NCBI RefSeq assembly: GCF_030013205.1
Contig: NZ_CP122648.1
Reading direction: 5' to 3' (one strand)
DNA from: Escherichia coli
Lineage (GTDB): Bacteria > Pseudomonadota > Gammaproteobacteria > Enterobacterales > Enterobacteriaceae
Length of the DNA stretch: 64,000 nt
The position numbers and the translations under genes are program-made. Shown here one piece after another: positions 5,995 through 39,900 of this stretch. How positions within the stretch are numbered: position 1 is the first letter of the stretch; each line of letters starts with the position of its first letter. The notes beneath the pieces were generated by a model. It was not told where the DNA came from and made no database searches. It was given only the letters and a program-made list of their open reading frames with translations.

Positions 5995-6267
5995 ATGTCT
6001 CATACCATCCGTGATAAACAGAAACTGAAAGCGCGTGCCAGTAAGATTCAGGGCCAGGTCGTGGCGCTCAAGAAAATGCTCGACGAGCCGCACGAATGCG
6101 CTGCAGTTTTACAACAGATTGCTGCTATCCGTGGCGCGGTAAACGGTCTGATGCGGGAAGTGATTAAAGGTCATCTGACGGAACACATCGTTCACCAGGG
6201 GGATGAGCTAAAACGTGAAGAAGATCTGGATGTCGTTCTGAAGGTGCTGGATTCTTATATCAAATAA
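5995..6267 (+). CDS. rcnR: Ni/Co-responsive transcriptional repressor (CsoR/RcnR family)
   Basis: 90-aa ORF ([29 protein letters not shown]...) divergent from rcnA. Confidence 0.95.
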
Positions 6268-6304
6268 TTTATTAACGCGATTGTAAAACTGCGGTTTTTA
6301 CTCG

Positions 6305-6333
6305 TTTACAACGCGTGCGCTGGACATTACCAT
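6305..6333 (+). promoter_or_regulatory. Candidate sigma70 promoter, possibly the displaced native thiM promoter
   Basis: TTTACA (6305-6310), a 17-bp spacer, then TACCAT (6328-6333), about 30 bp upstream of the left TPP-aptamer copy. Confidence 0.35.
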
Positions 6334-6360
6334 CCTCCTCTGCGATTTATCATCGCAATC

Positions 6361-6437
6361 AAACGACTCGGGGTGCCCTTCTGCGTGAAGGCTGAGAAAT
6401 ACCCGTATCACCTGATCTGGATAATGCCAGCGTAGGG
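6361..6437 (+). repeat. Left copy of the 77-bp direct repeat: TPP riboswitch aptamer fragment (putative attL)
   Basis: Identical over 77 bp to 15251-15327. The sequence AAACGACTCGGGGTGCCCTTCTGCGTGAAGGCTGAGAAATACCCGTATCACCTGATCTGGATAATGCCAGCGTAGGG is the thiM THI-box aptamer. Confidence 0.9.
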
Positions 6438-6520
6438 GGCCAAAATAGTCTTGAAAATTATGTGGTTGTATCTCTTTTTGACCATAAATCATGCTGTTAA
6501 GGTACAAAAAGGGGTCGTTT

Positions 6521-7828
6521 ATGAGGTCAAGAACTCTCCCATACACATTTCAGCGAAACGGTAATTACTATCTACAAATCCGGCTTTCGGATGGTCGGAT
6601 ATACAAAAAATCACTTTTTACTGACAGTTATCGCGAAGCATCGGCGTTGATGATTGGCCTTACTCCGCACATTCCTTTCGTTAAATCACTCGCTACTCCG
6701 TTGCCGCAATTTAATAAGTTTGTTTCAAACTTGATCGCTTCGTCACGTAACGTAATGATTCCGTTGCCACTCCCTCAGCAATTGAACAATATTTCTAAAG
6801 AAGTTTTGCAGCTTCAACCACCAGCCAAACCGGAAAAGGTGCTAACACTTGCTGATGCGTGGGCTATGTACAAGGAGGAAAGAGGTCGAAATTGGACAAA
6901 ATCGATCTCAATGGCAAATGAGCGTTATATGGAGGTATTGCTTGTTGTCTTGGGAAAAGAAACAGACGTAACGGCAATCACCAAACAAGATATTAAGCGA
7001 GTAATGGAAACTGTCGAAAACTTACCAAAGCGTGTAGTGCAACCGTATAGGTCAATGACTATTCAGCAACTAATCGAATGTGATGATGTGCTGCCAGAGG
7101 ATTTAGTTGGTGCTGAGGCTGTACATAAGCACCTTAAAATCTACAAATCGTTATTCAAAACATTTCTGACTGAAAACAAAGATATTCTATCTAAGTCTCC
7201 GACTGATGGAATAGTAGCGGCACCATCCAAAGCTAGGTTTGGTGCATACAGTGCAGCAGAAATGAAAAAATTTGTAGGATGGGCACTAAAGCAGCCTGAT
7301 GGATGGCAGAAGTGGATCACTTTGTTGTTGGCGTACACAGGAGCCAGAAGAGGTGAGATTGCTAAACTGGAGAAGTCGCAGATCAAATTTGATGAAGATA
7401 GCCAGCGGCACTATCTTCTGATCGCGGAAAGAAGGCTGGGTAAAACTGAGAATGCTACAAGACAGGTAGTGATTCATCCCAAACTGATTGAGTGGGGGTT
7501 TCTGGATTTTGTTAACCGCCAATGGAAAGAGAAAATCTTTTCGGAAGTCTCAGGTCGAAATATGTCAAAGATAGGTAAAGTTCTTTCAGATGTTCGTGAT
7601 CAGCTTGATATTCCTTATCTTGATGATTATGGGCAGCGGCGCTTGGTGCATAGTTTCCGGCATACTATGATTTCTACTTGTTTAGCTGGTTGGGTGAGTA
7701 ATTTGGCGCATCTGCAACAGGTGGTAGGTCATGAGAAAAGCGGTTTAGGGATTACCAGACGCTATTTGCACTCTTTTCCTTTACGTTCAATTTGTTACGT
7801 GATTGATGGTTTGGACTGGTTAAATTGA
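6521..7828 (+). CDS. Tyrosine recombinase / phage-type integrase
   Basis: ATG 6521 with SD AAGGGG (6509-6514). C-terminal catalytic residues are visible: ARRGE (Arg), HSFRH (His-x-x-Arg), GHEK (His), RRYLH (Tyr). The track start at 6491 adds 10 aa. Confidence 0.9.
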   Translation: MRSRTLPYTFQRNGNYYLQIRLSDGRIYKKSLFTDSYREASALMIGLTPHIPFVKSLATPLPQFNKFVSNLIASSRNVMIPLPLPQQLNNISKEVLQLQPPAKPEKVLTLADAWAMYKEERGRNWTKSISMANERYMEVLLVVLGKETDVTAITKQDIKRVMETVENLPKRVVQPYRSMTIQQLIECDDVLPEDLVGAEAVHKHLKIYKSLFKTFLTENKDILSKSPTDGIVAAPSKARFGAYSAAEMKKFVGWALKQPDGWQKWITLLLAYTGARRGEIAKLEKSQIKFDEDSQRHYLLIAERRLGKTENATRQVVIHPKLIEWGFLDFVNRQWKEKIFSEVSGRNMSKIGKVLSDVRDQLDIPYLDDYGQRRLVHSFRHTMISTCLAGWVSNLAHLQQVVGHEKSGLGITRRYLHSFPLRSICYVIDGLDWLN

Positions 7829-7927
7829 TGTGAGCCTCGTGAGAAAGGGAATAAATAGAGAAAATCAAGTTGTTACCTCATTGGCAGGGGATATAATGAC
7901 CATATTGTCATCTTGAGGAACAAAAGT

Positions 7928-9499
7928 ATGGTTGCTCGTTCTAACCTTGTAAATTTAGATGCACTGATTAAGCGTGCTGATTTAGGTTTAAAGATCCAAG
8001 ATAACTCTTCATTTGAAACGCTAAACAGTATTCCTGCAAGAGAATTGAAATCAGGAAGTGGAATTGCTGCGCTTCTGAGAAAACCAGATTTCCAGCGTGA
8101 AACAAATCATTGGGGGCCTGAGCAGGTTGTATCGCTTCTCGAATGCTACATCAATGGTGATTTGATACCTTCCGTTATTCTTTGGCGGTCTTCAACCCAT
8201 CTTTTTGTGATCGATGGTGGTCATCGTTTAAGTGCGTTACGTGCTTGGGTTGAAGATGATTATGGCGACGGTCATATATCCCATCAACTTTTTGGGCATG
8301 ATATTCCTCGTGAACAACGCCGCGCTGCAGATAGAACGAGAAAGCTTGTGAAGGAGAGGGTCGGTAGCTGGGAATATTATCAGAAGTTGCTTGCCGATGA
8401 TGCTTCATTGACCGAGGAACAGCAGAGAAGAATCAGCGTATTAACATCTCGTGGAATCTCAGTCCAATGGGTAGTGGGTGATGTAGATAAGGCAGAAACT
8501 TCATTTTTTAACATCAATATGAAGGGAACTCCTCTTGATGCTATCGAAGAGATGCTTCTAAAAAATCGCAAGAAAAGTATTCCGATAGCAACCCGAGCAA
8601 TTATTCGTGCCGGTAGAGGTCATCGCTATTGGTCGGGGTTTGATCAGAGCATTGCCCAGCAACTTGAAGATAAATCTGCAAAGCTGCATCGTTTGCTGTT
8701 CGAACCTGAAGTTGATCGCCCTATTAAAACTCTTGATCTTCCATTAGGCGGTTCTAGGGGGGTCAGGACAGCGATCCAAGTTTTGAAAGATTTCTTACTG
8801 ATCACTGATTGCAACCAGAATGGTGTTTTGAAAAAAATCGAAGCCTACCCTGATGATGCGTCGGGTGCTGATACGTTAAGAATCCTTTCCAAAGCCACAT
8901 CATTAAGCAATAGAATTACAGGCAATGGCGATGGTAGCTTGGGGCTTCATCCAGCGATTTATTTTTATGGTCCGACTGGAATCCACTCAACGCCAATGTT
9001 TCTAGGAACTGTGCTACTGGTGGCAAAACAACTCTCTAACAATAATGGTCAATTCTTTAAAGACTTCACAACAATCAGATCTAGGCTTGAGAGAATAATG
9101 ATCGAATTTAAGGACTTGATCGCAATGATAGTACAAAAACCAGGTAGTAATGTCCGAGTGGCTCGCTACTGTGATTTTTTAAATGCGGTGATCAAATCAC
9201 TCAAGCAGGGAGAGAATATTGATGAGAGTAAGCTTATCGAGCTGGCCGAATTGGAGGGGAGAATACTCTCTGGAGATTTTAAGAGAACATCAGCAAAAAT
9301 CAGCGATGAACAAAAAAGTAAGGTGTTCATTGACGTGGCTCTGCGCAACGCTTTGAAATGTCCGATTTGCCAAGGTTACCTTGATACTGAAAAGTCAGTT
9401 TCTTATGATCATATCGTACGTGTCCGTGAGGGAGGAGATGGTAATTCTGACAATGTACAGTTGACACACCCTTACTGTAACCAGTCAGTGAAGTGTTAA
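7928..9499 (+). CDS. DUF262/ParB-like (DGQHR-type) N-terminal domain fused to a C-terminal zinc-ribbon HNH nuclease; candidate defence nuclease
   Basis: ATG 7928 with SD GAGGA. Motifs: KPDFQRE, VIDGGHRLSALRAW, FFNINMKGTPL. C-terminal sequence: CPICQGYLDTEKSVSYDHIVRVREGGDGNSDNVQLTHPYCN. The track start at 7913 is a TTG. Confidence 0.8.
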   Translation: MVARSNLVNLDALIKRADLGLKIQDNSSFETLNSIPARELKSGSGIAALLRKPDFQRETNHWGPEQVVSLLECYINGDLIPSVILWRSSTHLFVIDGGHRLSALRAWVEDDYGDGHISHQLFGHDIPREQRRAADRTRKLVKERVGSWEYYQKLLADDASLTEEQQRRISVLTSRGISVQWVVGDVDKAETSFFNINMKGTPLDAIEEMLLKNRKKSIPIATRAIIRAGRGHRYWSGFDQSIAQQLEDKSAKLHRLLFEPEVDRPIKTLDLPLGGSRGVRTAIQVLKDFLLITDCNQNGVLKKIEAYPDDASGADTLRILSKATSLSNRITGNGDGSLGLHPAIYFYGPTGIHSTPMFLGTVLLVAKQLSNNNGQFFKDFTTIRSRLERIMIEFKDLIAMIVQKPGSNVRVARYCDFLNAVIKSLKQGENIDESKLIELAELEGRILSGDFKRTSAKISDEQKSKVFIDVALRNALKCPICQGYLDTEKSVSYDHIVRVREGGDGNSDNVQLTHPYCNQSVKC

Positions 9500-9567
9500 A
9501 ATCACGTTTCACTTTTCGTTGTCATTTGTATCGAACGTTTTTGAGAAAGGGCAGGATTGCGAGCGAG

Positions 9568-9720
9568 TTACCAGCGTAAACAGATAAATACTGTTTTCGT
9601 AAGCCCACTGTCGCCGCTTTCCGCTCTGCAATTTTTGCTTGTCGGGGGGCTAATTGTGGCTTTGCTTGCCATAACATTAAAAGTCAGTAATATACTGAAA
9701 ATTAATACAATACTTTTCAT
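9568..9720 (-). CDS. Possible 50-aa exported peptide (below the ORF-track cutoff)
   Basis: Hand translation of the minus strand gives MKSIVLIFSILLTFNVMASKATISPPTSKNCRAESGDSGLTKTVFICLRW*. The N-terminus is signal-like and the SD is weak (GGGA). Confidence 0.35.
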   Translation of the reverse strand: MKSIVLIFSILLTFNVMASKATISPPTSKNCRAESGDSGLTKTVFICLRW

Positions 9721-9863
9721 ATATCCCATTGAATATTCAGTTCATTGCCAAATAGCAAGCGGAGCACTCTCTCTTTAACGTTGTAGTAACTTAGTTGAAC
9801 AATTTTATAATATAATTTGTCTAAGTTGGTTGATGTATCAAAGCCTTTTTCTGAAGAATGAAT

Positions 9864-9883
9864 TGGCGTGATTACTCACGCCA
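9864..9883 (-). terminator. Hairpin 5 nt after the stop of the 9888-10235 gene
   Basis: TGGCGTGA (9864-9871) pairs with TCACGCCA (9876-9883), loop TTAC. The downstream tract on the minus strand is only moderately U-rich. Confidence 0.4.
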
Positions 9884-9887
9884 GATT

Positions 9888-10235
9888 TTAAATTTCAGAA
9901 CATAGGCTAAGCGTATAGACAGCAGTTTGCCCATCATTGTTAGTCGGTCTCATAACGAAAACAGGCTGACTCCCATTATCAATGTATGTGACTGCAACCC
10001 CTCCATCAGGTGTGGCATACATTTTTGCGATGCTTTTTTGACCTATAAAATCAAGTCTCCAAGTCTTACCACCAAGATGTATTGTCATTTTTTTATCTTG
10101 TATATCAAAAGTTGAATCTACAGAAACTTTCTGACTTCCCGAGTCAATATGACCTTCCTGTATTGCTTTACAGGAAAAGGTTGTGGCGTGGCCCATCACT
10201 GGAATTAACAAAGCGGCAAATACTAGTTTTTTCAT
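9888..10235 (-). CDS. Small exported (periplasmic) protein of unknown function
   Basis: ATG 10235 preceded by GGGAGA. Sec signal peptide MKKLVFAALLIPVMGHA; the mature part looks beta-rich with one Cys near each end. The track ORF has a 19-aa upstream extension. Confidence 0.7.
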   Translation of the reverse strand: MKKLVFAALLIPVMGHATTFSCKAIQEGHIDSGSQKVSVDSTFDIQDKKMTIHLGGKTWRLDFIGQKSIAKMYATPDGGVAVTYIDNGSQPVFVMRPTNNDGQTAVYTLSLCSEI

Positions 10236-10345
10236 TTGTCTCCCTTGATGTGTCAAATGGATGGTGATGCTAATAATACATGATTGATTCAAAATGTCAC
10301 GATTAGTGCGTGGTTAATTGGTGCGTCAAATTGCATCTTTGTGCC

Positions 10346-10810
10346 ATGCGAAAGAATCTGAGATACCTTTTTGGACAACGAGTAAAAGAGTTCCGTATAG
10401 CTATTGGCTTAAGCCAAGAGGCCTTTGCAGATCGGTGTGGTTTTGCTCGTAGTTATATGAGTCGAATTGAGCGTGGTTGCTCTAATGCATCTCTTGATGC
10501 AATTGAGGTTCTGGCTGACGCTTTGCGTATTGAGCCTTGGCAGTTACTAGCTTCTGATTCAAGGAAAACTGATGATCAGGAGGTACTTGTTCCTTATGCT
10601 GCAGATGGGTCGTGTTTTCATCCAGGATTGGCAAGTACTCGCGATGGTTCGTTTAGAGTAGGGGAAAAATCAGCCCAGAAACGTTTCAGTTCGTTCAATG
10701 ACGCTCTCGAATACCTTCGTGGAATGGAAACCGCGAAGTGGCGTAGGCCTAATGCTAGTGGTAATTGGGGAATTGTATCTGCGGTTAAATGGGATCGACT
10801 GAATCAATAA
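10346..10810 (+). CDS. XRE/Cro-family HTH regulator with an uncharacterised C-terminal domain
   Basis: The sequence MRKNLRYLFGQRVKEFRIAIGLSQEAFADRCGFARSYMSRIERG is a classic XRE HTH. About 85 aa of C-terminal sequence are unassigned. Divergent from the 10235 gene. Confidence 0.8.
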   Translation: MRKNLRYLFGQRVKEFRIAIGLSQEAFADRCGFARSYMSRIERGCSNASLDAIEVLADALRIEPWQLLASDSRKTDDQEVLVPYAADGSCFHPGLASTRDGSFRVGEKSAQKRFSSFNDALEYLRGMETAKWRRPNASGNWGIVSAVKWDRLNQ

Positions 10811-10976
10811 GATATCAGTAATTTTCGGGCCACTCCACAAGGCAATAAGTGGCTTAGTGGTGATTATCGAAGGGGAATACAAGCGAGCACCTAGGCACCA
10901 TTGCAAGAACCGCTCAACGCTGAGATCAGCAAGCCCCGATTTCTGCCGACCGTCCCTGTCAAATATCAAGGAGGCA

Positions 10977-11516
10977 TTACGCCTCCTCTTCTTCCTTCTT
11001 AATTCGCTGTACCGTCGAAGGAGCAACATTAAAGATCTCGGCGGTTTTACGCACTGACACGCCATCAGAAAGGGCTTTCTTTATACCTTCTCGATCCACT
11101 GCCTTACCTTTACCACGCTTTCTAGGATTGACGGCTTGCGCTTCTCGTTTACGTTCTAACATCAGTTCACGTTCACACGTTGCCACTGCCGACAACATAG
11201 TAAGCATCATTTTTCCCATCGCGCTTGTAATGTCTGCAATGATCCCTTCTTTGTGAAAGCGAACAATTACACCACGATTATTAAGTTGTTCCACTAAGGC
11301 AAGAATGTCTAAGGTGTTACGCCCTAAACGATCAAGAGAGTGGACGTGTAAGGTGTCGCCTTCTCTCAGATAGGCTAAACACGCTTGTAAGCCTGGGCGG
11401 TTAGTGTCTTTACCAGACAGCTTATCTTCAAAGACTTTGTCGAGAGTTAGTCCTGCAAGCTGGCGATCAGTATTTTGATCTACAGTGCTCACACGCTTAT
11501 AGCCGATATTGCTCAT
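10977..11516 (-). CDS. Serine recombinase (resolvase/invertase family)
   Basis: MSNIGYKRVSTVDQNTDRQ carries the catalytic Ser motif, and there is a C-terminal HTH (VRKTAEIFNVAPSTVQRI). 179 aa from ATG 11516. Confidence 0.9.
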   Translation of the reverse strand: MSNIGYKRVSTVDQNTDRQLAGLTLDKVFEDKLSGKDTNRPGLQACLAYLREGDTLHVHSLDRLGRNTLDILALVEQLNNRGVIVRFHKEGIIADITSAMGKMMLTMLSAVATCERELMLERKREAQAVNPRKRGKGKAVDREGIKKALSDGVSVRKTAEIFNVAPSTVQRIKKEEEEA

Positions 11517-11529
11517 AAAATCCCCTTGA

Positions 11530-11654
11530 TGTATCGATTTGGCACCACTCCAATGCAAATGAGTGTGTTGTATTCATTTGGTCTGTTTCAAGCCTTATGG
11601 ATACGGAATATTACACGATTTAGCTGTATTCATTTGGTATGCCTAATGGATACG
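11530..11654. promoter_or_regulatory. Putative res site (2-3 imperfect inverted-repeat subsites) upstream of the resolvase gene
   Basis: TGTATTCAT (11569-11577) with ATGGATACG (11597-11605), and TGTATTCAT (11625-11633) with ATGGATACG (11646-11654), at different spacings. A weaker third half-site TGTATCGAT lies at 11530-11538. Confidence 0.45.
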
Positions 11655-12165
11655 CAGGGGGATAGATTAAATGGTGTTCTGTTTATACAGGTTTATTTGT
11701 TAGATCAACAAGTTGGCATTTCTAAACAGATGTTTGAACGTTGCCAAATGCCTTGACAACACAAGAAAATGGCTTGCTATGAACGCATTACACGAAATAA
11801 GGCTATAAAAACAAAATAAATTTTAAAATTTGCACAAAAACGAGAAAACTCGTTCGACAAATAATAGATTGGTTTTTAATCGACAATTTCTGACAATTTC
11901 TGATGGTGCTCTGTAAACCGCATTACACAAGGCTTTGCGAAAGTGATGTAAAAGTGAAGAAAGTTAACATTGCACTTTGAAGCCATTTTTCATTGGATTT
12001 TTTAGTAGGGAATTACACAGGGAATAGAGAGCATTATTCTATGATTTACACAGGGAATATAGGGGATTATGGCACACACATAGAAAGGCATTACACAGAG
12101 TGAGTGCTATGTGATGATTGGTAGTAACGGTAGGTCACTGTGAGCTACCCCCCACAGAATTCTGT

Positions 12166-12286
12166 TACCCCTATCAAGTCTAACAGGGGTTTATAAAGAA
12201 TAATAAACCGATGATACCCCTATCAATATTGATACCCCTATTAGCTTTGATATGACTACCCCTATCAAAACTGATACCCGATAAGA
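12166..12286 (+). repeat. Array of five direct repeats (TGA)TACCCCTATCAA followed by an AT-rich stretch (ori-like iterons plus DUE)
   Basis: TACCCCTATCAA at 12166, 12215 and 12257. Variants TACCCCTATTAG at 12233 and TACCCGATAAGA at 12275. An AT-rich run follows at about 12281-12340. Confidence 0.7.
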
Positions 12287-12440
12287 ATAAGTTAATAAGA
12301 ATAATTAAATAATATTCTTTATATCTATATATATGATCTTTTTGCCTTCCGGCGTTAGCTTCACTCTCTGGCAAGCAGCCTTACTCCGCTATCTTTGGGC
12401 TTCGTGGCTGGCCCGTTCCGCTCACACCGAAAGCAAAGCG

Positions 12441-12518
12441 TTACTCTTCTTCGTGTAACTATCGTTGGCGGTAACGCCACACGAAGAAATACTATTGCGC
12501 TGTGCGCAGTAAGAGTAA
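12441..12518. other. GC-richer segment with nested inverted repeats (three-way-junction-like fold; function unknown)
   Basis: TTACTCTT (12441-12448) pairs with AAGAGTAA (12511-12518). CTTCGTGT (12449-12456) pairs with ACACGAAG (12479-12486). TGCGC (12496-12500) pairs with GCGCA (12504-12508). Confidence 0.3.
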
Positions 12519-13364
12519 TCACCTAACCAATCACCTGATTGCTTACGTGTTAACTCTCTCTAACTCTTAATTACCCTCCTACATTTAATAACTCTATTAT
12601 TCTCTGTAGTTGTGTAATTACTCGAAGAGAGAGCGGCTAAAGCTCAATTACACTCTGCTTTCCTCGTGTAATTTCACTAAGCCTCAATACAATTTCACTT
12701 CCTACATTCTGTAGTCGTGTAATAGTTTTCGGTGGGGAAAAGCCAGAGGCGACACCGAAAGAAAATTCTGATCTTATTAATCTTATCTATCTTAGTTAAT
12801 CTTCTTACTTACTTTATCTACTTTATTATTAATAATAGCTTTATAAGCTCTCTGTGTAGCTCTCTGACGCAAGAAACAGCATTCAGGAAGGGAATCACCT
12901 TAGAAAAGTGTTCTTTGCGTCATAATGTGTTTTATGAAGGATTCAGAGGTGTTTCATAACACAAGGTATAGAGGATATTTTAGTTAATTAAAAATAAGGG
13001 GGCTAAATGCTTCTCTAACAGCATTAAGCAGGGTAGAGAATGGAAATGCATTGCCTACGTATATATAAACTCACTACAAGGCTTTACAGAGCGTTTTATA
13101 AAGTAACTAATCTAAGAACTCTCTGTTTTATATCTATCATCATCTTTCCATCATCTAACAAATACAAAATAAGCCCCTTAAATAAGCCTCTGGCGAGCTA
13201 AACAGCCATTACATAAGGGAATGTATTTCTTTTATCAAAACTTCGTTAGAACGCGTTTTAGAGCGTTTTATACAATAAGGAAGAATAGGACCGTCCGCAA
13301 GAGCACGAATTGCTAAGAAAGAATGTAAACGCATGAAAAATATCAGATTTTTTATGAAAATATA

Positions 13365-13393
13365 TTGACAAATGTTTCTTTATATGTAATAAT
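13365..13393 (+). promoter_or_regulatory. Near-consensus sigma70 promoter of the Rep-like module
   Basis: TTGACA (13365-13370), a 17-bp spacer ending in TGT (extended -10 type), then AATAAT (13388-13393). Confidence 0.6.
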
Positions 13394-13444
13394 AGGTATT
13401 AGAGAGACAGAAAAACATTCTTCTCTAAATAATCAAAATCAATG

Positions 13445-13483
13445 CACTTTGAAGCCGTCAGGCTTGCAAGGTGTTTTTCTTTT
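13445..13483 (+). terminator. Intrinsic-terminator-like hairpin in the leader between the promoter and the first ORF (attenuator or short sRNA 3' end)
   Basis: CACTTTGAAGCC (13445-13456) pairs with GGCTTGCAAGGTG (13461-13473) with two mismatches, followed by TTTTTCTTTT. SD AAGGAG and ATG 13504 follow. Confidence 0.5.
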
Positions 13484-13503
13484 AACTGAATAAGGAGTTT
13501 TTT

Positions 13504-13692
13504 ATGAAATGGTTTACACCGGAACACGTCGTAGAGGCATTTAAAAAAGGTGAGCTAACACGACATCAAGTAGTAATGAATCGTAATATGGCAAGGAGTC
13601 GAGGTTATCCAGAGCGTGAAAAATGTTTCGATGCAGCACTAAAAATTATTGATAAATTAAGAAAAAATGAAAAAGGATCTGAAACAGAGTAA
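13504..13692 (+). CDS. Small basic protein of unknown function (62 aa)
   Basis: Strong SD AAGGAG 7 nt upstream of the ATG. First ORF after the promoter and leader. Confidence 0.6.
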   Translation: MKWFTPEHVVEAFKKGELTRHQVVMNRNMARSRGYPEREKCFDAALKIIDKLRKNEKGSETE

Positions 13693-13711
13693 AGAAGAGA
13701 AGGAGAAAACT

Positions 13712-13882
13712 ATGAGCGAAACTACAGAAAAGAAAAGACAACCACGCACTTGCTTTCATATTCCTGATGAAGTATTTCAGGTGTTGTTTAAAGAAGCCAG
13801 AAGTAAACGTATCACTGTTACAGATTACATTCTTGATATGTTGAAAAGAGAGGCTGAAACACTCTCAAATAAAAGCAAGTGA
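13712..13882 (+). CDS. Ribbon-helix-helix (CopG/Arc-like) DNA-binding protein (56 aa)
   Basis: ATG 13712 with SD GAAGGAG. RTCFHIPDEVFQVLFKEARSKRITVTDYILDMLKR fits the RHH strand-helix-helix pattern. The track start at 13667 overlaps the previous ORF. Confidence 0.6.
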   Translation: MSETTEKKRQPRTCFHIPDEVFQVLFKEARSKRITVTDYILDMLKREAETLSNKSK

Positions 13883-13936
13883 TTTTTATCACCATAGTAG
13901 CGCCGTAGAGCGTGATTACATCAAGGAGCTTTTTTA

Positions 13937-14599
13937 ATGATTAAACATACAAAACCTTTCTTAGGAATAGATTATGACTTACTAGCAATCACTTCCCTAG
14001 TGATTAACGGCAAAACAAAAGAAGTAAAACTACATCATAAGATCATTTATTCTTATTTGTTAAGTTTATCTGGCACATATCAAAAGGTAACACCATCTTT
14101 GAAAGGTATTGGTGAGCGGTTAGGAGTAGGTACAGATCAGACGGTACGCCGTCATATCAAAGATCTTGTTTCTTTTGGATGGTTGAAGATTGAGGAAAGG
14201 GCAGGTAGCACAAATGCTTATATTGTCCTTCCTTATGAACAAGAAGCCCAGACACAACAAGAAGCTACCGTTAAAGCTGTTCAGGAACAGCTTCCCCCTA
14301 CGGAAGATAATAAAGAGTTTTCTTTTGATGTTCTTGATGATTGGGATGCGCCTTTACCTTGGGAAATGGAAGAAACGCCATCTGATGAAAAGGTAGCTAA
14401 TGATAATGAGGAGGATGTGTTAGAGAATTTTGCCTCTCTTATCATCCAGGAGAAACACACAAGAACAGGAGGGGCATCATTTATAGAATTTGCAACATCG
14501 TTAGCCTGTAAGCACAGGATAAAGCTACCAAATGGTATTGAGGCATATTTTGCTAAGAAACATCCCAAAGTATATGAAGACTTTGATATTCCATTTTAA
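13937..14599 (+). CDS. Winged-HTH protein with an acidic C-terminal region; putative replication initiator / DNA-binding protein
   Basis: SD AAGGAG precedes the ATG. wHTH-like segment LKGIGERLGVGTDQTVRRHIKDLVSFGWLKIEERAGSTNAYIV, then an acidic tail (DDWDAPLPWEMEETPSDEKVANDNEEDV). It lies next to the iteron region. The CDS call is solid; the function is inferred. Confidence 0.6.
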   Translation: MIKHTKPFLGIDYDLLAITSLVINGKTKEVKLHHKIIYSYLLSLSGTYQKVTPSLKGIGERLGVGTDQTVRRHIKDLVSFGWLKIEERAGSTNAYIVLPYEQEAQTQQEATVKAVQEQLPPTEDNKEFSFDVLDDWDAPLPWEMEETPSDEKVANDNEEDVLENFASLIIQEKHTRTGGASFIEFATSLACKHRIKLPNGIEAYFAKKHPKVYEDFDIPF

Positions 14600-14794
14600 T
14601 AAGGAGGGTTATGATTCAATATTTAGTAAAAAATAAAGTAGAATTCATCTATTCCACTCTCTAAAAATCTATCTGTGTAATATAAAATGAAAACATTATG
14701 GTATTAGCTATGTATTGGTTATTGTTCTTTCTGGCCTTAGAAACATATGCAAGTAAGTCTGGAAAACGAAAGTAATATATTGATGATTTGTTTG

Positions 14795-15052
14795 TTATAA
14801 CTTCGTGGTGTCAAGTCCAGCAGTTTTGAGTCGCTCGGTAAGATTTCTCATTTTGCTGAACTCTGTACCAAAGCTGGCTTTAAGTCCTACACCTTCGCAA
14901 AACTCTTTTGCCGTGACGTTTTTCAGATGGTCAACATATTTGGTCATCTGGAGGTGCATTTCCATCGTTTGGCTATTTCGTGATGCGCTGCTAATGGCTT
15001 GCTTAATGTTCTCGTAGATCTGGGTTCTGTCATTGTTTATCCCACCTATCAA
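14795..15052 (-). CDS. Small hypothetical protein (85 aa from a TTG start; may start internally)
   Basis: Open frame at the right end of the island. The only full-length start is TTG; the first in-frame ATG gives 56 aa (MEMHLQMTKYVDHLKNVTAKEFCEGVGL...). Confidence 0.45.
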   Translation of the reverse strand: MIGGINNDRTQIYENIKQAISSASRNSQTMEMHLQMTKYVDHLKNVTAKEFCEGVGLKASFGTEFSKMRNLTERLKTAGLDTTKL

Positions 15053-15146
15053 ATTTAGAAAAATAATATTAATTAGCTAATTAATATAATCAATGGTTTT
15101 CACCATCTGAATGATAGCCGTTAATTGTTTCTTTTTCATTCCTTCT

Positions 15147-15168
15147 ATGGGGTACAAAATGGGGTACA
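15147..15168 (+). repeat. Tandem ATGGGGTACA repeat near the right island end (candidate integrase arm-type sites)
   Basis: ATGGGGTACA at 15147-15156 and 15159-15168. A related GGTACAAAA occurs at 6501-6509 near the left end. Confidence 0.4.
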
Positions 15169-15250
15169 CAGAGAAGAAGCAATTAATGGAGGCGAGCTTG
15201 CATCTGCAAGCCACTTCCCCTAAGCTGGCACAAAATATAGAGATTCAACC

Positions 15251-15379
15251 AAACGACTCGGGGTGCCCTTCTGCGTGAAGGCTGAGAAATACCCGTATCA
15301 CCTGATCTGGATAATGCCAGCGTAGGGAAGTCACGGACCACCAGGTCATTGCTTCTTCACGTTATGGCAGGAGCAAACT
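15251..15379 (+). promoter_or_regulatory. thiM TPP (THI-box) riboswitch: aptamer plus expression platform (right repeat copy, putative attR)
   Basis: The aptamer sequence matches the well-studied E. coli thiM riboswitch. It continues into AAGTCACGGACCACCAGGTCATTGCTTCTTCACGTTATGGCAGGAGCAAACT and the thiM ATG at 15380. Confidence 0.9.
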
Positions 15380-16168
15380 ATGCAAGTCGACCTGCTGAGT
15401 TCCGCGCAATCTGCGCACGCGTTACACCTTTTTCACCAACATTCCCCTCTTGTGCATTGCATGACCAATGATGTGGTGCAAACTTTTACTGCCAATACCT
15501 TACTGGCGCTCGGTGCATCGCCAGCGATGGTTATCGAAACCGAAGAAGCCAGTCAGTTTGCGGCTATCGCCAGTGCGTTGCTGATTAACGTTGGCACACT
15601 GACGCAGCCACGCGCACAGGCGATGCGTGCCGCCGTTGAACAGGCAAAACGCTCTCAAACACCCTGGACGCTTGATCCAGTAGCGGTTGGTGCACTCGAC
15701 TATCGCCGCCGTTTTTGTCTGGAACTTCTGTCTCATAAGCCAACCGCCATACGTGGTAATGCTTCGGAAATCATGGCATTAGCTGGCATTGCTAATGGCG
15801 GACGGGGAGTGGATACCACTGACGCCGCAGCTAATGCGATACCCGCTGCACAAACACTGGCACGGGAAACTGGCGCAATCGTCGTGGTCACAGGCGAGGT
15901 GGATTATGTTACCGATGGCCATTGCACCGTTGGCATTCACGGTGGCGATCCGCTAATGACCAAAGTGGTAGGAACTGGCTGTGCATTATCGGCGGTTGTC
16001 GCTGCCTGTTGTGCGCTACCAGGCGATATGCTGGAAAATGTCGCATCTGCCTGTCACTGGATGAAACAAGCCGGAGAACGCGCAGTCGCCAGTAGCGAGG
16101 GGCCAGGCAGTTTTGTTCCACATTTCCTTGATGCGCTCTGGCAATTGACGCAGGAGGTGCAAGCGTGA
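15380..16168 (+). CDS. thiM: Hydroxyethylthiazole kinase
   Basis: 262-aa ORF ([33 protein letters not shown]...) directly after the TPP riboswitch. Confidence 0.95.
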
Positions 16169-36900: not shown

Positions 36901-39900
36901 TTACTCGGTTACCGTTTGTTTAGGTTTACGCGAAAAACGCAGCCGCAGACGGTCGAAAAAGAGATACACCACCGGCGTGGTATACAGCGTCAGAAGCTGG
37001 CTCATTACCAGACCGCCGACAATGGTGATCCCCAGGGGTTGGCGCAGCTCCGAGCCGTCACCGCCCGACAACACCAGCGGCAGCGCACCAAACAGCGCCG
37101 CCAGGGTAGTCATCATAATCGGGCGAAAACGCAGCAGACAGGCCTGGAAAATAGCTTCCTGCGGCGTCAGGTTACCGTGCCGTTGGGCTTCAAGCGCAAA
37201 ATCGACCATCATAATGGCGTTTTTCTTCACGATGCCGATTAATAGCATGATCCCTATCAGGGCGATTAGGCTGAACGGGGCATTGAACAGCTCCAGCGCC
37301 AGCAGCGCTCCAACGCCCGCCGAGGGCAGGGTGGAGAGAATCGTCAGCGGATGTACGTAACTCTCGTAAAGGATACCCAGCACGATATACACCGTGGCGA
37401 TGGCGGCGATAATCAGAATCACCTGCGAGTTCATCGTCTCCTGGAACACCTGCGCCGTGCCGGCAAAACTACCGCGTACCGTCGAAGGCACACCAAGCTG
37501 GGTCATTGCGCGATCGATCGCCGCACTGGCGTCCGAGAGCGATTTCCCGGTCGGCAGGTTAAACGAAATGGTCGAGGCTGCCGATAATCCCTGATGATTC
37601 ACCGACAGCGGAGCATTCGCCGGTTGCCATTTAGCGAAATACGACAGCGGGATCGCTTTTCCTTCGTTATTGATAACGAACATTTTTTCCAGCGCACTGA
37701 TGTCCTGGGTATAGCGCGGATCCACTTCCATCACCACTTTATACTGGTTCATCGGCTGGTAAATGGTCGAGATCTGCCGCTGACCGAAGGCGTTATTTAA
37801 CAGGCTGTTGGCGGCCTGTACATCGATTCCCAGCCGTGCCATGGTGTCGCGGTCGTAAACCAGATTCATCTCCGCGCCGTTATCCTGCTGATCGGAGTTC
37901 ACGTCCGCCAGTTCCGGCAACGTCGCCAGTTTTTTGCGGATTTTCGGCTCCCATTCGCGCAGTGCCGCCAGGTCGTCGGATAACAACGTGTACTGGTAGC
38001 TGGCGTTCGACTGACGCCCACCAACGCGAATATCCTGTACCGCCATCAGGAACAGATTCGCCCCCGGTTCTTTCGCCAGTTTTACGCGCAGACGGTCGAT
38101 AATTTGCTGCGCCGTTTCGCTGCGTTCGTCGCGTGGCTTGAGGGTGATAAACATCATCCCACTGTTCACCCGCGAACCGCCGGTAAAGCCGGTGACATTA
38201 TCCACCGCCGGATCGTCACGGATAATTTTCATAAAATCCTGCAACTTACCGCGCATCGCCTGAAACGAAATACTCTGATCCGCCTGTATCCCGCCCATCA
38301 ACACGCCGGTGTCCTGCTCCGGGAAGAAGGTTTTCGGGATCGAGATATACAGCCAGATATTCAGCGCAATGGTGCCAAGCAGCACCACGCCCACCAGACG
38401 GGTATGATTGAGCACCCATTTCAGCGACTTGCCATAGCCTTGTTGCAGGGCTACCAACATTCGACCAAAACCACGCAGTCGCTTTTGCTCGCGCGGCTTG
38501 CTGGCTTTCAGCATCCAGCCACACATCATTGGCGTTAGCGTCAGGGAAACCAGCAACGAAATACCAATGGCGACAGAAAGCGTCACGGCAAACTCGCGTA
38601 ACAGTCGGCCCGGCAATCCGCCCATCAACAGCAGCGGCAGGAACACCGCCACCAGTGACAGACTCATCGACAGCACCGTAAAACCGACTTCGCGAGTACC
38701 TTGCAGTGCGGCCTGTAGTGGTTTCATCCCCGCTTCCAGGTGACGGGCAATGTTTTCCAGCACCACGATGGCGTCATCCACCACGAAACCAGTAGCGATG
38801 GTGAGTGCCATTAACGACAGGTTATTGAGACTGAATCCGCACAGGTACATCGCCGCAAACGTACCAATCAGCGAAACCGGCACCGCAACGGCGGGAATAA
38901 TAGTGGCGCGACCCGAGCGCAGGAATAAAAACACCACCAGAATCACCAGCGCCACCGAGATAATCAGCGTTTGCTCGACTTCTTCCAGCGAGGCGCGAAT
39001 GGTGGGGGAGCGATCCTGGGCAATTTGCAGATCAATCGCCGCCGGAATGGTCTCCTGCAACTCCGGTAATTTTGCCCGGATGCTGTCAACCGTCTGGATA
39101 ATATTGGCTTCCGGCAGCTTGCGGATCATCAGCAAAATAGCCGGTTTGGCATTGGTCATCCCGGCGTTGCGCACATCCTGCACTGAGTCGGTCACCGTCG
39201 CTACATCGCCCAGACGAACCGCGCCGCCGTTGTTGTAATGAATAATCAGCGGCTGATATTCAGCGGCGGTTTTCAGTTCATCGTTAGTCTGGATCTGCCA
39301 GCGGTGAGTGCCATCTTCCAGCGCCCCTTGCGGTTTACGCACGTTGGCATTGCTGATGGCAGTGCGTACGTCGTCCAGTGACACGCCCTGATTAAACAGC
39401 GCCTGCGGGTTCAGCCCGACGCGCACCGCAGGTAGCGAGCTGCCGCCAACATCGACATCACCGACACCGTCGATTTGCGAAATCGTCGGAGCCAGCTGCG
39501 TCGAGGCAAAATCGTACAGTTCACCTTGCGAATAAGTATCGGATGTTAGCGTCAGGATCATAATTGGCGCATCCGACGGGTTTGCTTTGCGATAGGTCGG
39601 ACGGCTGGGCATCCCGCTGGGCAGCAAACTTTGTGCGGCGTTGATGGCCGCCTGCACATCACGCGCCGCGCCGTTGATATCCCGGTTAAAATCAAACTGC
39701 AAAATAATGCGCGTGCTGCCGAGCGAACTGCTGGAGGTCATTTCACTGACTCCGGCAATGCGCCCAAGTGAGCGCTCCAGCGGCGTGGCAACGGAAGACG
39801 CCATTGTTTCTGGTGACGCACCGGGCAGCGAGGCACTGACCATAATCACCGGAAAATCGACCTGCGGCAGCGGGGCGACCGGCAGCATACGGAAACCCAG

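Follow-up and report, generated by a model that had tools for sequence, protein, structure and literature searches.

The three co-oriented genes at positions 13504-14599 of a 64,000-nucleotide stretch of an Escherichia coli chromosome (contig NZ_CP122648.1; the whole stretch is called the window below) are probably the control and replication operon of an integrated island that acts as a satellite of phi92/phAPEC8-like virulent myophages (Stephanstirmvirinae). The island measures about 8.8 kb (6438-15249) and has rcnR on one side and thiM on the other, in a chromosomal segment that includes yehA-D, rcnA, rcnR, thiM, thiD, yegX and onward. A first-pass annotation of the letters had proposed either a minimalist, helper-dependent replicative element or an integrated small plasmid. 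The former is favored by an initiator-type fold in the third gene product, by cognate repeats, by relatives that bear capsid genes, and by phage nucleases that carry an identical domain.

The three open reading frames (ORFs) encode proteins of 62, 56, and 220 amino acids (13504-13692, 13712-13882, and 13937-14599, all on the plus strand). GGAG or AGGAG stands ahead of all three start codons, in agreement with the strong Shine-Dalgarno sequences described before, and the leader reported in front of the operon corresponds to about 110 nucleotides that follow a predicted near-consensus sigma-70 promoter with an extended -10 element (13365-13393, plus strand; TTGACA, a 17-nucleotide spacer, TG, and AATAAT, or 11/12 consensus positions plus the TG). 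The genes are not a chance cluster of ORFs, because about 600 of 5426 complete E. coli genomes carry the module at 90-100% identity; in all, matching E. coli genomes number about 1170. The product of the first gene is indeed basic (14 K+R versus 10 D+E); proteins of 60-66 residues are found in its place in all relatives, with no match in Pfam, PHROGs, NCBIfam, or PADLOC. The 56-residue protein is probably a ribbon-helix-helix (RHH) protein, as had been suggested: its AlphaFold model (predicted local distance difference test score, pLDDT, of 84) has the RHH topology, with an extended N-terminus and helices at 19-31 and 36-55, and it matches nearly only RHH proteins in the PDB (Arc, VapB12, CopG, AmrZ, ORF56, and ParG; template modeling (TM) scores of 0.6-0.8). 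The E-values of these structural matches are weak (0.08-0.9), as expected for only 56 residues, and neither a Pfam RHH match nor a significant PDB sequence match was obtained. From this fold we infer a role as a transcriptional (auto)regulator. A mechanical ORF list also offers a 71-residue form starting at 13667; the 56-residue form is the one annotated in RefSeq.

The 220-residue protein is a predicted RepA_N-like replication initiator. It matches Pfam HTH_36 (E = 1e-7) and five PHROG families of replication initiation proteins (O-like or DnaD-like loaders; E = 1e-10 to 1e-7). Its model comprises a confidently predicted winged-helix domain at residues 9-100 (pLDDT 80-90), which with the HTH_36 match bears out the winged helix-turn-helix (HTH) described earlier, a disordered linker (103-156), and a four-helix C-terminal domain (157-214). 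The acidic region (17 D+E versus 3 K+R at 103-156) is the linker ahead of the helical domain. Structure and remote-homology searches returned an initiator-type fold for the N-terminal domain. The first Foldseek match in the PDB is 4RO3 (E = 1.6e-3; TM-score of 0.68-0.70 on the target; root-mean-square deviation of 2.1-2.4 over 102 columns), which is the N-terminal domain of RepA from the Vibrio cholerae satellite PLE (PMC7145576). The runners-up 4PQL, 4PT7, and 5KBJ (TM-scores of the top matches range from 0.44 to 0.70 on the target) are staphylococcal RepA_N plasmid initiators, one of them bound to its own iterons (PMC7145576). A sequence profile also spans the whole 4RO3 domain at E = 0.014. 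Membership of the RepA_N group is thus supported by the modeled fold, not by sequence.

The last residues of the protein, YEDFDIPF, resemble the tail of SSB (single-stranded DNA-binding protein), DDDIPF. This FD-[IL]PF end is invariant in 16 diverse relatives (F216, D217, P219, and F220 do not change, and residue 218 is I or L), even in those with a different C-terminal domain. In E. coli, DnaG, Pol III chi, PriA, and other proteins dock on the DDDIPF tip of SSB (PMC5872125, PMC3632105), and from the resemblance the DFDIPF tail is inferred to bring such SSB partners to the origin. The idea that the tail copies a helper-phage protein was rejected, since among the ORFs of phage muut (matched below) with 40 codons or more, none ends in D-[ILV]-P-F. 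The linker and C-terminal domain are common to initiators with different N-termini; one initiator variant (L027, P0055; L- and P-numbers are labels for the loci or sequences and the proteins compared) has an unrelated C-terminal domain and still ends in FD-[IL]-PF. An exhaustive phmmer search of 1.84 billion representative sequences with the C-terminal domain returned six proteins, which rules out a wider family and suggests an orphan, lineage-specific domain.

The link to phages comes from nucleases. A tblastn search of 50,697 phage records matched a single phage, Escherichia phage muut (two records), a 146-kb virulent Justusliebigvirus. Residues 1-115 of the 220-residue protein are identical to the N-terminus of muut_154, with five synonymous nucleotide changes (98.6% nucleotide identity), and the preceding gene product, muut_153, is, like inny_185, 44% identical to the 56-residue RHH protein. 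Beyond the shared N-terminus, muut_154 has a second HTH_36 domain followed by a MUG113/T5orf172 (GIY-YIG-type) domain. The same nuclease in Mt1B1_P17 carries another N-terminus, called type C below, which over 105 residues matches the initiator of L009 at 99% identity, and the nuclease of phage inny has a third N-terminus type. A nuclease with the muut type of N-terminus (type A below) is lacking in inny, phi92, and Mt1B1_P17, which are Justusliebigvirus or Phapecoctavirus phages. In these nucleases, the second domain shares 91% identity with the N-terminus of a further type of satellite initiator (P0078, L027, L029). Coliphage Odn-like nucleases with two tandem winged-helix domains were located at L004 6001-6999 (muut_154), L011 1414-2400, and L010 1057-2160. 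The architecture of muut_154 is that of Odn from phage ICP1, whose DNA-binding domain is a copy of the one in PLE RepA and which cleaves the PLE origin at the iterons (PMC8263062).

Most copies of the module head 11-12 kb integrative elements in E. coli. Their layout is a recombinase or small ORF, 2-3 kb of non-coding DNA, the 60-66-residue gene, the RHH gene, the initiator gene, and five small genes, followed by a lambda-E-type major capsid gene, a 67-residue gene, a tape-measure-like gene of about 610 codons, a Dit-like baseplate gene, and an integrase gene; major capsid, decoration, tape-measure, and baseplate-hub genes are found in L002 (RM9131), L003, L008, L009, and L029. The Dit-like protein is 61% identical to muut_230 and the tape-measure-like protein 32-53% identical to muut_231, and for this reason Stephanstirmvirinae phages are proposed as the helpers of the family. 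In strain PEC403 (L009 1-7100 and 7700-20300), two different family members lie in tandem near yagU, and in one of them a 715-residue coiled-coil protein and a GNAT gene replace the tape-measure-like/Dit-like pair. Twelve matches among IMG/VR viral contigs were considered as evidence of packaging and discarded, since they are mostly prophage-style calls from isolate genomes.

The first-pass annotation had placed iterons next to the initiator gene. Repeats do exist, at 12160-12282 (plus strand), although they are not adjacent to the gene and lie about 1.65 kb upstream of it. The array consists of the semi-palindrome TTGATA-CCCC-TATCAA in four good copies and a degenerate one, the TACCCC cores of the good copies starting at 12166, 12215, 12233, and 12257; the 9-mer TACCCCTAT occurs four times in the array and nowhere else in the 64-kb window. 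Directly after the repeats comes a 53-bp stretch of 89% A+T (12283-12335), a candidate DNA-unwinding element, and all relatives inspected likewise have AT-rich DNA after the array. Neither an iteron array nor an exact occurrence of TACCCCTAT exists in the muut genome. One 18/19 match to the junction of two island iterons (ACCCCAATCAATATTGATA) was observed in muut at 37724 on the minus strand (L005), within the rmlC-like gene muut_57; its chance expectation is estimated at about 1e-4.

In the relatives, the flanks of the origin spot are conserved and the repeat cassette between them varies. The N-terminus of the initiator was typed and repeats were counted in 20 loci. Type A N-termini (the window, L002, L023, and L024) always go with at least four A-type repeats; type C (L008, L009, L015, and L016) with 4-5 copies around ACAGAAWWCTGT and zero A-type repeats; type E (L027, L029, and L017) with TAGGAA..TTCC repeats; and type B (L003, L018-L022, and L025) with 2-6 copies of GGTAGGTCA..TGA. 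Arrays of at least four A-type repeats were found in 4/4 type A loci versus 1/14 others (Fisher p about 0.002). Each of the four repeat types is semi-palindromic, as the iterons of RepA_N initiators have been described to be (PMC7145576). A strict one-to-one covariation of repeat and domain is ruled out by composite arrays, since L029 holds A and X arrays, L002 holds G repeats, and the L003 array is also composite. Across the 20 loci the cognate array is never missing, and arrays of other types are kept in some. The N-terminal domain of the 220-residue protein belongs to a set of several specificity types that are interchangeable within the family.

Taken at its most probable, this operon would work as follows. 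During helper infection, a dimer of the 220-residue protein would bind the TTGATA-CCCC-TATCAA repeats and open the adjacent AT-rich DNA, and its C-terminal domain and SSB-like DFDIPF tip would bring in primosome or replisome proteins (PriA, DnaG, Pol III chi) or their phage equivalents; genes for a helicase, primase, or polymerase are absent from the island. The 56-residue RHH protein would repress or tune the strong operon promoter, as CopG and Arc do. The muut nuclease would be a counter-measure that cuts the island origin, as ICP1 Odn cuts the PLE origin. With no capsid or tail genes of its own, the island would depend wholly on its helper for particles. The recombinase, origin, and initiator segment has been kept from the family architecture, the integrase and the attachment site (a thiamine pyrophosphate, TPP, riboswitch of thiM) are different ones, and the type IV restriction cargo is swappable.

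Several observations weigh against this interpretation. In the PDB sequence profile, MarR regulators (E = 3e-4) outscore 4RO3, the Foldseek E-values of the 220-residue protein are modest, and Pfam RepA_N (PF06970) is not listed for it at E up to 1, HTH_36 being the only family that passes the cut-off. The SSB tail is a resemblance over six residues. The iterons lie 1.65 kb from the initiator gene, no DnaA box was found in 11500-13500, and the match of repeat to domain is clean for types A and C only, composite arrays being found. The fourth operon gene and all morphogenesis genes have been lost, so the island may be inert. Finally, no experimental follow-up was found in the literature, and replication, excision, packaging, and cleavage are predictions for the E. 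coli family.

That the island is inert is the strongest of the competing explanations, although we consider it unlikely. The left arm of a satellite would have been captured by recombination into an unrelated defence island at the thiM site; nothing would replicate or move, and the genes would persist because the event is recent. Homology to the capsid-encoding elements is in fact confined to 10960-14748, with the integrase, cargo, XRE, and HTH_73 genes outside it and with the serine recombinase, at which the homology to L002 and L008 starts (10960), as the left edge of the shared segment. The fourth operon gene, of 92 codons in the capsid-encoding relatives and 81 in L027, was cut by a deletion of about 220 bp (the homology skips from 13353 to 13572 of L002) to a 17-codon stub (14611-14664, plus strand) whose N-terminus is like that of the L027 protein. 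The capsid and tail genes and the usual integrase of the family are absent, and in L028 an IS3 element destroyed the same region. On the other hand, the promoter, the three ORFs, the repeats, and the AT-rich stretch are all intact, the same architecture recurs at the thiM site with different cargo and a type E initiator, which points to an evolving lineage, and in three strains the divergence of the island is 5-9 times lower than that of the flanks.

The remaining alternatives fare worse. It is improbable that the 220-residue protein is an ordinary transcription factor, with the repeats as its operators and the nucleases aimed at a conserved regulatory site. Its relatives do bear the RefSeq labels "transcriptional regulator" or "LexA family", winged-helix regulators of generic type (MarR, LexA) are among the fold and profile matches, and helicase and primase genes are lacking. 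Yet initiators, not regulators, top the fold list, the PHROG matches are all to replication initiation, directly repeated semi-palindromes abutting DNA of 89% A+T have the layout of an origin, a repressor would have no evident use for an invariant SSB-like tail, and PLE RepA drives replication although it has no helicase or primase activity (PMC7145576). Sharing in the reverse direction, in which a phage homing endonuclease gave the island its DNA-binding domain, for binding helper DNA and altering helper gene expression, has a precedent in PLE CapR (PMC8096241) and could draw on the 18/19 repeat-junction match in muut; we regard it as very improbable, since the cognate repeats are arrayed in the islands, where they vary with the domain type, and the muut genome has neither an array nor the exact 9-mer. 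Least credible of all is the integrated small plasmid. An RHH gene upstream of an initiator, together with iterons and a resolvase, does resemble small plasmid replicons, and plasmid RepA_N proteins are the closest folds after PLE RepA. However, a tblastn search of 72,556 plasmids (PLSDB) gave three weak partial matches and no full-length homologue, 683 of 684 E. coli matches are chromosomal and one is on a plasmid, no partition, relaxase, or oriT function was found, and the relatives bear phage capsid and tail genes.

The remaining features of the island agree with the earlier description of an integrase-bounded element. A 78-bp perfect direct repeat flanks it (6360-6437 and 15250-15327, plus strand, 100% identical over 78 bp). 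The right copy lies within the functional thiM TPP riboswitch (Rfam TPP match at 15249-15345, 71.2 bits), and the left copy lies within a second TPP match (6359-6454, 61.9 bits) just upstream of the integrase gene. The double Rfam match arises because the 78-bp attachment (att) repeat is the thiM riboswitch aptamer, duplicated by integration. Logan/ENA contigs of 8.9-9.1 kb were rejected as evidence for a free, excised circle, because they start and end inside the 78-bp repeat and are repeat-bounded assemblies. The gene order is a tyrosine integrase (6491-7828, plus strand; Pfam Phage_integrase, PHROG integrase), a gene for a GmrSD-like N-terminal domain with HNH (7913-9499, plus; Pfam GmrSD_N, E = 3e-12, and HNH), a small hypothetical gene (minus), an XRE-type HTH gene (10310-10810, plus; Pfam HTH_31 and HTH_3) whose product resembles control (C) proteins of restriction-modification systems (PADLOC control protein, E = 6e-17), a small serine recombinase of the resolvase/invertase type (10977-11558, minus; Pfam Resolvase, E = 4e-34), which is the resolvase noted before, then about 2 kb without genes, the three-gene module, and an HTH_73-domain gene (14795-15052, minus; Pfam HTH_73, E = 7e-27). 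Scans of the island proteins with Pfam and PHROG gave no capsid, relaxase, or primase gene, as had been claimed, and no major capsid, decoration, tape-measure, or baseplate-hub gene was found in 6438-15249 in the ORF list or by Pfam or PHROG. The 17-codon stub downstream of the initiator gene retains a strong ribosome-binding site (MIQYLVKNKVEFIYSTL).

The integrase, which is typical of the thiM-site islands, has no homology to the integrase end of L002 or L003. The slot after it varies, with GmrSD_N+HNH in the window, an HNH "mREase_IV" in L027 (4520-5245), and an unrelated 316-residue protein in L028 (4787-5737). Judged by gene content, this slot behaves like a defence cargo hotspot, and the GmrSD_N+HNH protein is a predicted type IV restriction-like enzyme. 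The HTH_73 gene, the right-end gene of these islands, is shared with L027 and L028 and absent from the capsid-encoding satellites. In O157:H7 strains and BL21, it stands with the riboswitch alone beside thiM (84-88% identity), the rest of the island missing; such lone copies may be scars of earlier islands at thiM.

Further sequences in the gene-free region were recorded. After the AT-rich stretch comes a conserved GC-rich segment with two strong hairpins (12336-12545, plus strand), near-identical in six relatives. One hairpin is long (CTTCGTGT...ACACGAAG), and the other (TTGCGCTGTGCGCAG) is unchanged even in the diverged L009. Rfam gives no match to this segment; a structured RNA could not be upheld, the alignment varying too little for a covariation test and the covariation term being unfavorable (+1.98). 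The segment may serve for packaging, for primosome assembly, or as an RNA. A large non-coding RNA in the 2-kb gap was likewise rejected, an Rfam scan of 6000-15500 having returned only the two TPP riboswitch copies. The motif ATTACAC (core TTACAC, often GCATTACAC or AATTACACAG) occurs in nine exact copies at 11610-12720 of the window, six direct at 11610-12647 and three inverted at 12612-12717, and is conserved in most relatives; the recombinase, the RHH protein, and the 62-residue protein are candidate binders. A 17-nucleotide repeat is present upstream of the origin repeats (11968-11984) and in the operon leader (13440-13456; CATTGCACTTTGAAGCC and CAATGCACTTTGAAGCC).

L027, also at the thiM site, has a type E initiator N-terminus, a different C-terminal domain, and another RHH protein, and its fourth gene is intact. 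K_EC180, KSC1031, and ETEC1748 are among the strains that carry the island. Between the window strain and strains SI-NP020 and A10, identity is 99.7% in the island versus 97.2-98.8% in the flanks; the island is therefore younger than its surroundings, and its low divergence argues for recent horizontal spread. From these comparisons of sequence, we conclude that the island most likely belongs to a capsid-less lineage of the satellite family and is not a one-off wreck. A more far-reaching proposal is possible but tentative: the thiM-riboswitch islands would be a distinct, still active minimalist branch that has lost its capsid and tail genes and retains just integrase, defence cargo slot, recombinase, origin, and initiator, amplified and spread by phi92/phAPEC8-like virulent phages, with an initiator that loads the replisome through an SSB-tail mimic; the phage nucleases would be bispecific, their two DNA-binding domains each copied from a different type of satellite initiator. 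We know of no initiator for which an SSB-tail mimic at the origin has been described as a replisome-loading mechanism.

The island is an uncatalogued variant of a kind of satellite already predicted in the literature. Barth, Dunham and Seed (2023) described the T5orf172/RepA_N nucleases of Inny, Muut, and Mt1B1_P17 (PMC10448857, section 24, Fig. 8), the mirrored modularity of RepA N-termini, and 224 putative satellites in E. coli that carry genes for RepA, for decoration, capsid, tape-measure, and baseplate-hub proteins, and for an integrase, integrated at tRNA or lysR sites and in a subset carrying a serine recombinase; the RM9131 element is listed in their satellite table (Table S6). An entirely novel family is thereby ruled out. 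Like those satellites, the island has flanking att repeats and an integrase, its initiator is 100% identical to that of RM9131 over the first 100 residues (92% nucleotide identity over the shared region), its N-terminal domain matches the muut nuclease, and it shares the 62-residue gene, the RHH gene, the origin region, and the serine recombinase. Unlike them, it has no major capsid, decoration, tape-measure, or baseplate-hub gene, it has another tyrosine integrase and uses the thiM TPP riboswitch as its att site, and it carries the type IV restriction cargo slot, the XRE protein, and the HTH_73 gene. In the part of their supplements available to us, neither the thiM-site carriers CP019560, CP062203, CP028764, CP066806, and CP122719 nor the words thiM, riboswitch, GmrSD, and iteron were found (PMC10448857). 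What appears to be new is the capsid-less thiM-riboswitch lineage with its defence cargo, the repeat types and their association with domain types, the SSB-like tail, the homology of the tail genes to muut, and a satellite cognate for the second domain of the nucleases, which was reported as undetected by Barth et al. (PMC10448857).

Among characterized systems, the closest likeness is to PLE and ICP1. There, too, a satellite of a virulent phage has an initiator of RepA_N type that comes with no helicase or primase; the iterons are semi-palindromic and lie in non-coding DNA, initiator and origin form modules that can be swapped, and a T5orf172 nuclease of the phage reproduces the part of the initiator that binds DNA (PMC7145576, PMC8263062). 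The identity to the PLE N-terminal domain is only about 20%, however, and the C-terminal domain, the rest of the element, and the helper are unrelated. Phage and satellite domains are 99-100% identical in the coliphage system versus 42% for Odn and PLE RepA, and the coliphage nucleases, unlike Odn, carry two tandem DNA-binding domains. With the RepA_N initiators of Firmicutes (RepA of pSK41 and pTZ2162) the protein shares the winged-helix fold, the semi-palindromic iterons, and a lineage-narrow C-terminal domain; it differs in having no Pfam RepA_N match, in its chromosomal integrative element and Gram-negative host, and in that no plasmid homologues were found. The phage-inducible chromosomal minimalist islands (PICMI) of Vibrionaceae are also small, integrase-bounded, and capsid-less, and are proposed to depend fully on virulent helpers (bioRxiv 10.1101/2023.07.18.549517); no shared genes were detected here, and the likeness is one of concept only. 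Classic phage-inducible chromosomal islands (PICI), their capsid-forming counterparts (cfPICI), and P4-like satellites resemble the island in being integrative and helper-dependent and in having defence cargo hotspots, and their helpers are temperate phages. Pfam and PHROG scans found in the island neither AlpA, Pri-Rep, the terminase small subunit, portal, and protease of PICI and cfPICI nor Psu, Sid, Delta, and the alpha primase of P4-like elements, which upholds the earlier remark that it fits neither gene set.

To our knowledge, the only satellites of virulent phages that are understood in detail are those of Vibrio, through PLE and ICP1. The family described here offers an arms race of that type in phages that infect E. 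coli K-12, where genetics is easy, and both sides of it can be seen: satellites with swappable initiator/origin modules, and phage nucleases that copy their DNA-binding domains at 99-100% identity. The thiM-site island is the smallest version of the system, with its origin and initiator intact and zero morphogenesis genes in about 8.8 kb. It also shows integration into a riboswitch aptamer and, for an element of this kind, a slot with type IV restriction cargo. As a natural minimal replicon, it would allow one to ask how a satellite with no helicase, primase, or polymerase replicates, whether the SSB-like tail does the recruiting, and whether the muut nuclease cuts the origin.

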